Shown piece by piece: positions 51,231-53,333 of a DNA stretch of 64,000 nucleotides. Under the pieces are notes generated by a model. The model saw only the letters and a list, made by a program, of their open reading frames with translations. It had not been told where the DNA came from and made no database searches. Origin of the DNA: Patescibacteria group bacterium. GTDB taxonomy: Bacteria > Patescibacteriota > Patescibacteriia > Magasanikbacterales > GWA2-37-8. The position numbers and the translations under genes are program-made. Each line of letters begins with the position of its first letter. Position 1 is the stretch's first letter. The DNA lies in the NCBI GenBank assembly GCA_004321885.1, contig SCQK01000013.1, forward strand, positions 64,001 through 128,000, written 5' to 3'.

Positions 51231-53333
51231 TTATGTATGGGATTGCTTCCCGCCAGAGGCGGGCAGGCGCTCTTCGCTCGCAATGACATTTTTTTTATGC
51301 CCCAAAAACATCCAATTGCCATACTCATTGAACCAGCGGAAAACAATGCGGATATTGATGCGGGTAACGGTAATGGCCGTAAACATGGAGACCAACGTGC
51401 CGATGGCCAACGTGACGGCAAAGCCCTGCACAAACCCGGTGCCAAACCATATAAGGAATCCGCAACTGATAAGGGTGGTGATATTGCTGTCGCGAATGGA
51501 CGGCCAGGCGCGCGCGAACGACTCCTCGGCCGCCGACAGCAAACTGCGGCCATTGCGTAATTCTTCTTTCATGCGCTCAAACACCAGCACATTGGCGTCT
51601 ACGGCCATACCGATAGACAAAATAAAGCCGGCAATGCCCGACAAGGTTAAAGTTACTCCGATAATCTTAAAGATGGCCAAACTTAAAAGGGCGTAGACGA
51701 GCAGAGAAACATTGGCCAACAAGCCGGGAAAGCGATAATAGCCAATCATGAAAAGCAAAACTAAAATCAAACCAACAATGCCGGCGAAAAAACTTTTACG
51801 CAGATACTCGGAACCCAAAGTGGCGTCCACTTTCTGCTGGCTGATGAGGTCTACGGCCACGGGCAAAGCGCCGGCGTTGAGGCGCTGGGACAAAAGCCGC
51901 GCTTCGCCGAGCGTGAAACTGCCCGAGATGACGGCCGAGCCGCTGGTGATGGCTTCGTTCACGCGCGGAATGCTAATGGGCTCACCGTCCAAAAATATGG
52001 CCACGTTCTTGCCCACATTGCGCGTGGTGATATCGCCGAACAATTTTGTGCCTTCTTCGTTGAATTGCAGATTGACCTGCACTTGTCCGGACTGATTATC
52101 CTGGGTTACCTCGGCGCGCTTGAGCTGCTTGCCCGACAAGCCCGAGCTTTTCCATTCCTCGGCCGGCGGCACGACATCGGAAGCCTGTTTAGTCTTCACG
52201 TACACGCGGGCCACCTCATATTCCCTGGACGGCTTTTCATCTTTTTTGTAAATAATGTGAAAACCGAATTTTGTTTCCACCGCATTGGACACAGCGCCCT
52301 TGGGCATCGCGCCCGCCGCCTCTTCAAACTCCGGCACCATTTGGCCCTTCTTAAACCAGCCCAGCTCTTCGCCGCGCACTTCCAATTTTTTATCCGGAGA
52401 ATATTGCTGTACCAACTGGGCAAAATTGGCGGGCGACGCCTGGGCTTTTATTTCACCGGCTCTTTGGCGGGCCTGGTCTTTGTTCAATTTGCTTTCACAC
52501 CCTTCGGCGCCGGCATAACAAACCAACAAGTGCGACGCGTTTATCATTTTTTCGCCGTCGCGGCCGGAGAGCCGTTTTACCACGTTCAAGCCGTCAAAAC
52601 TTTTCACCAGGGTTTTGCCCGCCTGGCCGTCTTTGGCTTTCTCGGCCCAAGCAAAAATTTCCGGATAAATTTCTTTGGTAATAAATCCCAGATTGCCGCC
52701 CTTGTCTTTGCTGGCCTGGTCTTCGGAATATTGGGCCGCGATTTTGCCGAAATCGGCCCCGGGTTTTAGGGCCGCGGTTAGAGCTGTTTTGGCTTTTTTA
52801 TCGGCCGCGCTGTTAAAAACGTCCAGGTCTTTTTTTTCTTGGGGTGTCAAATCGCGGGCCGGGTCGTGATTTTCTTCCTTAAATTCCAGTATCGGAGTTT
52901 CGCCAATCATTTTGATGGCCTGATTGACATCGGTAACGCCGGGCAATTCCACAATCACGCGATAATCGCCGCCGACCTTGGTGGTTTGCACCAATGGCTC
53001 GGCCACGCCCAGGCCCCCGCGCACGCGCCGCTCTATCACGTCGCGCACGCCTTCCACGGCGTCGCCGCGGTCGCCTTCGGGAATGGTTTCTGTTTTGGCC
53101 TGATAAACCAAATGCGCGCCGCCCTGCAAATCCAGGCCCAGATTAAAGCCCTTATCCGGCAAGCGGGGCAAACCGATGTTGGCCGCGTTGTTGAGCCAGT
53201 CTATGCCGCGGTTGGCGAACGCCGGCAAAACAATAAGCAGGGTGGCAATGGCCAAAGCGACCACGCCGGCCGCGTGCCATTTTAATTTTTTCGCCGACGA
53301 AACCTTGTTGGAAATTTTTACTGCCATAAACAC
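51231..53333 (-). CDS. secD: Protein translocase subunit SecD with an inserted parvulin-type (PpiC-like) peptidyl-prolyl isomerase domain; C-terminal tail and stop supplied by a family C element
   Basis: SecD N-terminus and [11 protein letters not shown], C-terminal TM bundle. Middle segment ...[15 protein letters not shown]...[43 protein letters not shown] resembles the parvulin rotamase fold. Last residues …[16 protein letters not shown] are read from 51238-51287. Confidence 0.8.
   Translation of the reverse strand: [700 protein letters not shown]
51238..51287. repeat. Palindromic element, family C (half-copy: GGGATTGCTTCCCGCCAGAGGCGGGCAGGCGCTCTTCGCTCGCAATGAC)
   Basis: Shares GATTGCTTCG and CGCTCGCAATGAC with the 45614 and 53855 copies. 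Confidence 0.6.

Follow-up and report, generated by a model that had tools for sequence, protein, structure and literature searches.

In a stretch of 64,000 nucleotides from a Patescibacteria group bacterium (assembly GCA_004321885.1, contig SCQK01000013.1, positions 64,001 to 128,000 of the forward strand; called the window below), we found a secD gene whose product carries a parvulin module within its large extracytoplasmic region P1. The gene product serves a Magasanikbacteria-like bacterium as SecD, one subunit of the export motor SecDF that is driven by protons. Its insert is composed of two parvulin domains, an outer one (Parv1) and an inner one (Parv2). Because the first transmembrane (TM) helix precedes the insert and five TM helices come after it, the module is extracytoplasmic. 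The fusion is conserved across relatives and is therefore a real feature of the whole clade. We suggest that the insert probably works in cis as a foldase, similar to PrsA or SurA, at the exit of the translocon.

A first-pass annotation, made from the sequence of the window, had proposed that this SecD contains an inserted parvulin-like peptidyl-prolyl isomerase (PPIase) domain. Domain, sequence and structure searches bore this out, and the peptides quoted there correspond to residues 264-363. In the Pfam search that the annotation had recommended, both Rotamase families exceeded the cut-off. Rotamase_3 (PF13616) matched residues 253-364 with 112.5 bits (E 2.1e-32; cut-off 22.5), Rotamase (PF00639) reached 104.5 bits over the insert (E 6e-30), and the Rotamase calls on the protein fell into two stretches. 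The annotation had described a segment of about 110 aa located between the P1 region and the TM bundle. The catalytic Parv2 in this segment is real; however, the foreign part is about 234 aa long (residues 153-386), since the degenerate Parv1 had been missed, and the module lies inside P1, at the connection from the base to the head. In the phmmer alignment with the SecDF of T. thermophilus (3AQP), residues 62-152 of the query corresponded to residues 32-116, and the alignment resumed at query residue 387 with residue 149. The module of about 234 aa thus takes the place of about 32 aa (3AQP residues 116-149). None of the matched SecD or SecDF structures (T. thermophilus, D. radiodurans, E. coli) covers the insert, which was nearly free of gaps across 70 homologues. 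We also considered that the 110-aa segment might be a divergent form of the ordinary P1 head. This was rejected because the head is present separately, as SecDF_P1_head at residues 397-492, downstream of the parvulin.

The part of the protein that surrounds the insert is a SecD. The open reading frame (ORF) at 51231..53333 matched the secD equivalog TIGR01129 over residues 65-659 with 374.1 bits, compared to a cut-off of 244.4, and its closest sequence in the PDB was that of T. thermophilus SecDF (3AQP, E 9e-72). When the ATG at codon 3 is used as the start, the product has 698 aa and is 100% identical to the NCBI entry 'protein translocase subunit SecD [Patescibacteria group bacterium]' (P0001). 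Pfam, AlphaFold2 (AF2) and Foldseek displayed the topology of SecD, with the helix TM1, a big extracytoplasmic P1 made of base and head and then five TM helices, and a partner gene, secF, was found at 50307..51221. The region up to residue ~500 is placed outside the cytoplasm, because TM1 precedes it, the TM helices at 508-667 come after it and the protein is homologous to SecD. Asp579 in the GMAVDANV motif was aligned with GAAVDGNV of T. thermophilus and was invariant in the 70 homologues. We take its counterpart to be Asp340, the TM aspartate of the proton pathway in T. thermophilus. Judged from these residues, the motor part of the protein looks intact.

Structure prediction had also been proposed in the first-pass annotation. 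The AF2 model, built on the 70 homologues, had a mean pLDDT of 81, and the means of 10-residue blocks in the insert were mostly 81-93, with a single loop of low confidence (311-320, mean 56). In a Foldseek search with the full model, the top matches were the SecDF structures 5yhf, 5xan and 3aqp, and SurA was found after the SecDF chains with an E-value of 1e-8. The sequence comparison agreed with this, as the insert spans both parvulin domains of SurA, named P1 and P2 in that protein (1m5y residues 171-364, E 5e-13, phmmer).

The two domains differ in the state of their active sites. Parv2 covers positions 5-113 of the 116 positions in the Rotamase_3 profile, and its closest relative in the PDB is PrsA (6vj6, E 7e-14). 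The order of its helices and strands in the AF2 secondary structure is the canonical order of parvulins, beta1-alpha1-3-beta2-alpha4-beta3-beta4. Its active site was conserved among 176 tandem fusions, in which H268 was found in 173 sequences, Asp or Glu at position 314 in 174, Thr or Ser at position 354 in 175 and H359 in 174. These four residues presumably correspond to H42, D74, T118 and H123 of Par14 (H59, C113 and H157 of Pin1). The loop between beta1 and alpha1 of Parv2 also contains two cysteines, Cys272 and Cys279. Both were present in 171 of the 176 fusions and both were missing in 5, and there was no sequence with one alone. This joint retention or loss suggests that they may form a disulfide. 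Parv1 alone was matched by Rotamase_3 with 44.6 bits (E 2.5e-11; cut-off 22.5) over profile positions 35-111 only. Asn250 stands at the His position of its last strand. Position 250 was occupied in 175 tandem fusions, by Asn in 134, by Ser in 23 and by His in 5. By its catalytic residues Parv2 thus qualifies as a parvulin PPIase, whereas Parv1, with N250 and R376 at both His positions, does not.

The survey of SecD architectures, another check named in the first-pass annotation, showed that the fusion is widespread. The combination of Rotamase and SecD occurred in all of the 120 best 90%-identity clusters, which were 61-70% identical to the SecD of the window. The clusters with names belonged to Candidatus Magasanikbacteria or Patescibacteria, and two of the 120 were single-chain SecDF fusions of ~990 aa. 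Such proteins of some Magasanikbacteria, in which a tandem-parvulin SecD is joined in frame to SecF, were P0071 (996 aa), P0086 (990 aa) and an ORF of locus L011 (1030 aa). When the insert alone was searched against 1.84 billion 50%-identity representatives, 23 of the best 150 matches held parts of SecD, and in 21 of these 23 the site of insertion was the same, while the identity of the insert fell as low as ~32%. We further scanned one genome per GTDB species and recovered 80 loci (one contig was present twice, as L013 and L014). The module was located within SecD at the same position in 37 of these loci, and in 35 of the 37 secF was directly downstream of secD. The titles of the 37 loci were those of Magasanik-, Uhr- and Parcubacteria. 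Some GTDB records were titled 'uncultured Gammaproteobacteria bacterium' (TPA_asm) or 'Candidatus Binatia' (L004, L008-L010, L012, L015, L019, L022, L025, L027, L029, L033, L041, L071). They encode a SecD-parvulin of the Patescibacteria type, with a SecD core 60-85% identical to that of the window, and their titles look like taxonomic mislabels.

The remaining 43 of the 80 loci (L035-L040, L042-L047, L049-L070, L072-L080) contained free-standing multi-parvulin genes with no SecD nearby. These free-standing relatives, the closest that the tandem module has, were mostly from Ignavibacteria and Bacteroidota, with ~32% identity over both domains, and representative multi-parvulin proteins such as P0124 and P0126 had three Rotamase stretches. 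Two short proteins, P0214 (280 aa) and P0218 (286 aa), had a SecDF_P1_head (~56-140) followed by a canonical parvulin (~170-280), with no TM part of SecD. They may represent another pairing, of independent origin, between a P1-head-like domain and a parvulin, or fragments of genes.

Because the genome of the window is metagenome-assembled, one may suspect behind the fusion a chimera of the assembly, two genes joined by a frameshift or a chance match to a motif. We found no evidence for such an artefact, and it is almost certainly wrong. The gene is one uninterrupted ORF, the Pfam E-values go down to 1e-32, and the same architecture recurred in independent assemblies, hundreds in number, from NCBI, JGI, ENA and Logan, which already refutes this explanation.

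A second form of the fusion sheds light on how the module is built. The loci L048 (4013-4381) and L071 (4019-4366) encode a SecD of ~560 aa with one parvulin, and all of the 120 best matches of the L048 protein (P0277) combined Rotamase with SecD. These single-parvulin proteins (P0277-P0396) were ~550-600 aa long, and the named carriers were Kuenen-, Buchanan-, Falkow- and Parcubacteria, the first three being sister lineages within the Patescibacteria. The proteins share with the window protein the insertion site, the SecD core (~60% identity) and a homologous module, but they have one apparently permuted and catalytically complete parvulin of ~120 aa instead of the tandem. The order in this form runs from alpha1 to FGYHII (beta4), a turn (ERGEG) and the strand xSxHILIKT, and the first strand of a classical parvulin, together with its catalytic His, stands last. 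The His of the trailing strand, the Asp in YSED and the FGYH His were each found in 111 of 111 single-domain sequences. When the trailing strand was put at the N-terminus, the match to PF00639 reached profile position 1 and gained 3-7 bits compared to a control with the strand reversed. In the AF2 model of P0277, beta4 (233-243), a turn and beta1 (250-259) formed a hairpin with pLDDT of 93-97. The invariant strand with the trailing His, the longer Pfam match after the strand was moved and the AF2 hairpin together indicate that the single-domain form is probably a circularly permuted, catalytically complete parvulin. A Foldseek search with the single-domain model returned only SecDF and RND chains in its top 50, with no parvulin match at the level of the fold.

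In Parv1, as in the single-domain relatives, beta1 is absent from the N-terminus and appears to be placed after beta4. The stretch from beta4 of Parv1 to beta1 of Parv2 in the window protein has its homologue in KRIESRGEGENLEVHSEHILIK of the single form, and the strand that trails Parv2 has its own in xSxHILIKT, the invariant strand after FGYHII in the 111 single-domain SecDs. Because both segments have a homologue in the single form, the tandem seems to have arisen when the permuted unit was duplicated, and its outer copy to have decayed. The trailing strand at residues 368-381 would then be the displaced first beta-strand of Parv1. Parv1 would be permuted, with its first strand given by the strand after Parv2, and Parv2 would be nested within Parv1.

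This nested arrangement is favoured by three observations. H268, D/E314, T/S354 and H359 are kept together, while positions 250 and 376 are mostly Asn and Arg. His250 and His376 are retained together, in that His376 was also present in 4 of the 4 evaluable tandem sequences with His250, compared to 6 of 171 of the other sequences, although these counts are small and phylogenetically non-independent. Finally, the AF2 strands of the window protein are unbroken from 248 to 271 and from 357 to 380, the residue numbers of their ends add up to 628 at either side, and this register fits a single antiparallel ribbon that passes through the two domains. Two permuted domains side by side were considered as well. 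They are disfavoured because the conserved H268 and H359 would be divided between two half-dead sites, and because AF2 gave no turn between residues 254 and 262.

The two long continuous strands through both parvulin domains make the module look like a rigid connector, and it is located at the exact connection between base and head that moves in the SecDF cycle. It might be supposed from this that the module is an appendage that serves the structure or the regulation of the motor. It could, for example, limit or gate the swing of the P1 head between the F-form and the I-form, or touch the cell wall or the S-layer, and would not act on substrates at all. However, such a role gives no reason to keep a complete parvulin active site, and parvulins have a fold dedicated to the binding of peptides. 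There was also no envelope-binding domain among the Pfam matches of the window SecD. We consider an appendage of this kind very unlikely.

We prefer to regard the insert as a foldase that acts on the chains leaving the translocon. The P1 region of SecDF is thought to bind the emerging chain and then to move off the pore, driven by the proton gradient (PMC6028853). In the fusion protein, an unfolded secretory chain emerging from SecYEG would be captured by the P1 head, and the adjacent Parv2 would catalyse prolyl cis/trans isomerisation in the freshly released chain, while the degenerate Parv1 would serve as a scaffold or a binding surface. The help in folding would be anchored where the chain exits, on the side of the membrane where the cell has no ATP. 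The conserved catalytic residues make it plausible that export is coupled to prolyl isomerisation. The first-pass annotation had supposed that such a fusion may be useful to an organism without a set of periplasmic chaperones. No second parvulin ORF was found within the 64-kb window, which is a small share of the genome.

Several points weigh against this proposal. The AF2 model of the window SecD had a pTM of 0.47, so that the relative placement of its domains is unreliable, and the nested pairing and the nearness of the module to the P1 head are derived from secondary structure and conservation. The strand move that lengthened the match of the single form brought no gain for Parv1 of the window (45.0 vs 44.6 and 44.5 bits), where the case for permutation is based on the homology with the single form, the co-retention of His and the AF2 strand register. 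We infer the PPIase activity of Parv2 from its conserved residues, and what SurA, PpiD and PrsA do as chaperones can largely be separated from PPIase activity. Moreover, in two loci, L034 (~1907-2327) and L041 (~1216-1627), Parv1 is kept and Parv2 is replaced by a Thr/Ser-rich linker, LVTSTVPVLTTSTTSTVNV. The SecD of these Magasanikbacteria-like genomes looks like a natural 'catalysis-deleted' variant, and since Parv2 was lost there, catalysis is dispensable in some lineages.

It could be argued from such variants that the module acts chiefly without catalysis, as a chaperone or a docking surface which widens the binding by the P1 head for holding or handing over the chain, and that its PPIase activity is incidental. 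Parv1 has lost both His and is nevertheless kept, nearly free of gaps, in the tandem fusions, and the nearest analogue in both sequence and structure is the P1 and P2 pair of SurA. The parvulin domains of SurA are dispensable for its core chaperone activity, and that of PpiD is inactive. However, the Parv2 tetrad was retained in at least 98% of the 176 tandem fusions, and H, D and H were invariant in the 111 single-domain sequences. This would be hard to explain without selection on catalysis, and the conservation suggests that purifying selection has acted on the catalysis by Parv2. A mainly non-catalytic role is therefore possible in our opinion, but doubtful.

The proposal of a foldase acting in cis may also be extended. 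In these bacteria, SecDF might be an energy-coupled extracytoplasmic foldase, in which the proton-driven swing of the P1 head feeds the polypeptide into the parvulin site at the hinge and pulls it back out, a chemiosmotic form of chaperoning without ATP. The insert would then be the first natural parvulin that was circularly permuted and afterwards duplicated into a nested pair, and the fusion would be a 'Rosetta stone' sign that in all bacteria the P1 head is a general dock for the parvulin chaperones SurA, PrsA and PpiD. Taken as a whole, this extended version appears unlikely to us.

The positions of the features in the secD region are listed in the table.

Features of secD, of its protein and of the adjacent secF in the window
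Feature	Position in window	Strand	Residues and remarks
secD ORF	51231..53333	-	700 aa from GTG; single unbroken frame; from the ORF list
TM1	53226..53294	-	~14-36; AF2 helix 14-35 and hydrophobic sequence of the ORF
P1 base, N-terminal part	52878..53156	-	60-152; GG motif and SecD_1st; last strand ILEFK; aligned to 3AQP 32-116
Sec_GG (Pfam)			60-81
SecD_1st (Pfam)			94-155
Complete inserted module	52176..52877	-	153-386, ~234 aa
Parv1 body	52572..52844	-	~164-254; parvulin-like, without N-terminal strand; catalytically degenerate
Parv2	52236..52550	-	~262-366; canonical parvulin PPIase; H268, S312, D314, T354, H359, Cys272/Cys279
Trailing strand	52191..52232	-	~368-381; Arg376 where single-domain relatives have the catalytic His
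P1 head and return to base	51858..52175	-	387-492; Pfam SecDF_P1_head 397-492, 99 bits; 3AQP from residue 149 on
TM2-TM6 bundle	51333..51857	-	493-667; Pfam SecD_SecF_C 494-656; AF2 helices 508-667
secF	50307..51221	-	9 nt downstream of secD; TIGR00966 294 bits vs cut-off 160

On the strand of secD, a tRNA-Val (TAC) at 53377-53450 (-) is located 44 nt upstream of the secD start, and secD-secF may be co-transcribed with this tRNA or may be transcribed from a start just after it. The secA gene (55202-58156, -) is about 2 kb upstream of secD, and secA was also upstream of secD-secF in many Magasanikbacteria loci (among L001-L034). Between secA and secD there are a GIY-YIG ORF (54866-55159), a NUDIX-like ORF (53968-54441, -) and two ORFs with no Pfam match. 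The NUDIX match covers only profile positions 4-70 of 134, at the extreme C-terminus of the protein (residues 91-156), and the long Arg/Gly-rich N-terminal part has no match, so this ORF may be truncated or mis-started. Directly downstream of secF is an ORF of 472 aa (48700-50118, -), with a hydrophobic segment at its N-terminus and no Pfam match at E 1e-3.

In the full-text literature that we searched, which has most subscription journals outside its coverage, there was no description of a SecD-parvulin fusion, of the SecD of Magasanikbacteria or of a parvulin with a circular permutation, and public records label the fusion proteins simply 'SecD'. The fusion overturns nothing that is established, and it supplies an unusual parvulin that is probably nested and permuted. 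A SurA-like module that is covalently placed beside the P1 head throughout a clade provides independent evolutionary support for a chaperone partnership of the P1 head with parvulins, and it offers a compact system of one polypeptide in which this partnership can be studied. The natural series of forms, i.e. single permuted, double active, tandem with a dead outer domain and tandem with the inner domain deleted, could help to separate the catalytic role of parvulins from their chaperone role. These bacteria, whose genomes are small, appear to have packed a function like that of PrsA into the translocon.

Compared to canonical SecD and SecDF (T. thermophilus 3AQP and 5YHF, D. radiodurans 5XAN), the window protein has the same TM1, P1 base and head, five-helix bundle, conserved Asp and secF partner, and differs in the parvulin module of ~234 aa that stands in place of ~32 aa. 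Parvulin-domain proteins that are physically at the Sec translocon or at SecD are also known from other bacteria. The parvulin domain of PpiD is catalytically inactive, unlike the conserved site of Parv2. PpiD/YfgM associates with SecYEG (PMC9643414), and the Mycoplasma parvulin lipoprotein Mpn444, a PPIase, cross-links to SecD (bioRxiv 10.1101/2024.09.05.611430). In contrast to the fusion, PpiD/YfgM and Mpn444/Mpn436 are separate polypeptides in a non-covalent association. The PrsA of Firmicutes (6VJ6, 4WO7), which is also counted among the known or proposed partners of the translocon, resembles Parv2 in the Asp at the position of Pin1 Cys113, and it is likewise an extracytoplasmic parvulin, tethered to the membrane, that works after Sec export. 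However, PrsA is a separate lipoprotein whose NC chaperone domain embraces the parvulin, while in the window the tether is SecD. No NC domain was detected in the window SecD, and the NCBIfam models of PrsA gave 68-77 bits against cut-offs of 343-361, in the parvulin part only.

The closest parallel is found in SurA (E. coli 1M5Y), a periplasmic chaperone with an inactive P1 and an active P2 parvulin domain. The insert has the same tandem of parvulins, degenerate in the first and catalytic in the second, but it is covalently part of SecD, and its Parv1 has no N-terminal strand and is probably permuted. The N-terminal and C-terminal chaperone core of SurA was not found in the window SecD, as there was no match to SurA_N or another core family in Pfam and the phmmer match was limited to SurA residues 171-364. 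Because no chaperone core domain is present, the window SecD is neither a SurA nor a PrsA. As a member of the Patescibacteria, the organism is expected to have no outer membrane and no BAM, unlike the setting of SurA. In the E. coli holotranslocon, all five AlphaFold models put the P1 and P2 parvulin domains of SurA on the P1 head of SecDF (PMC9987972), and it was proposed from low-resolution electron microscopy and AlphaFold that the P1 head recruits SurA via these domains (PMC9987972). The module in the window, although it is not a SurA, plausibly acts like the parvulin arm of SurA.

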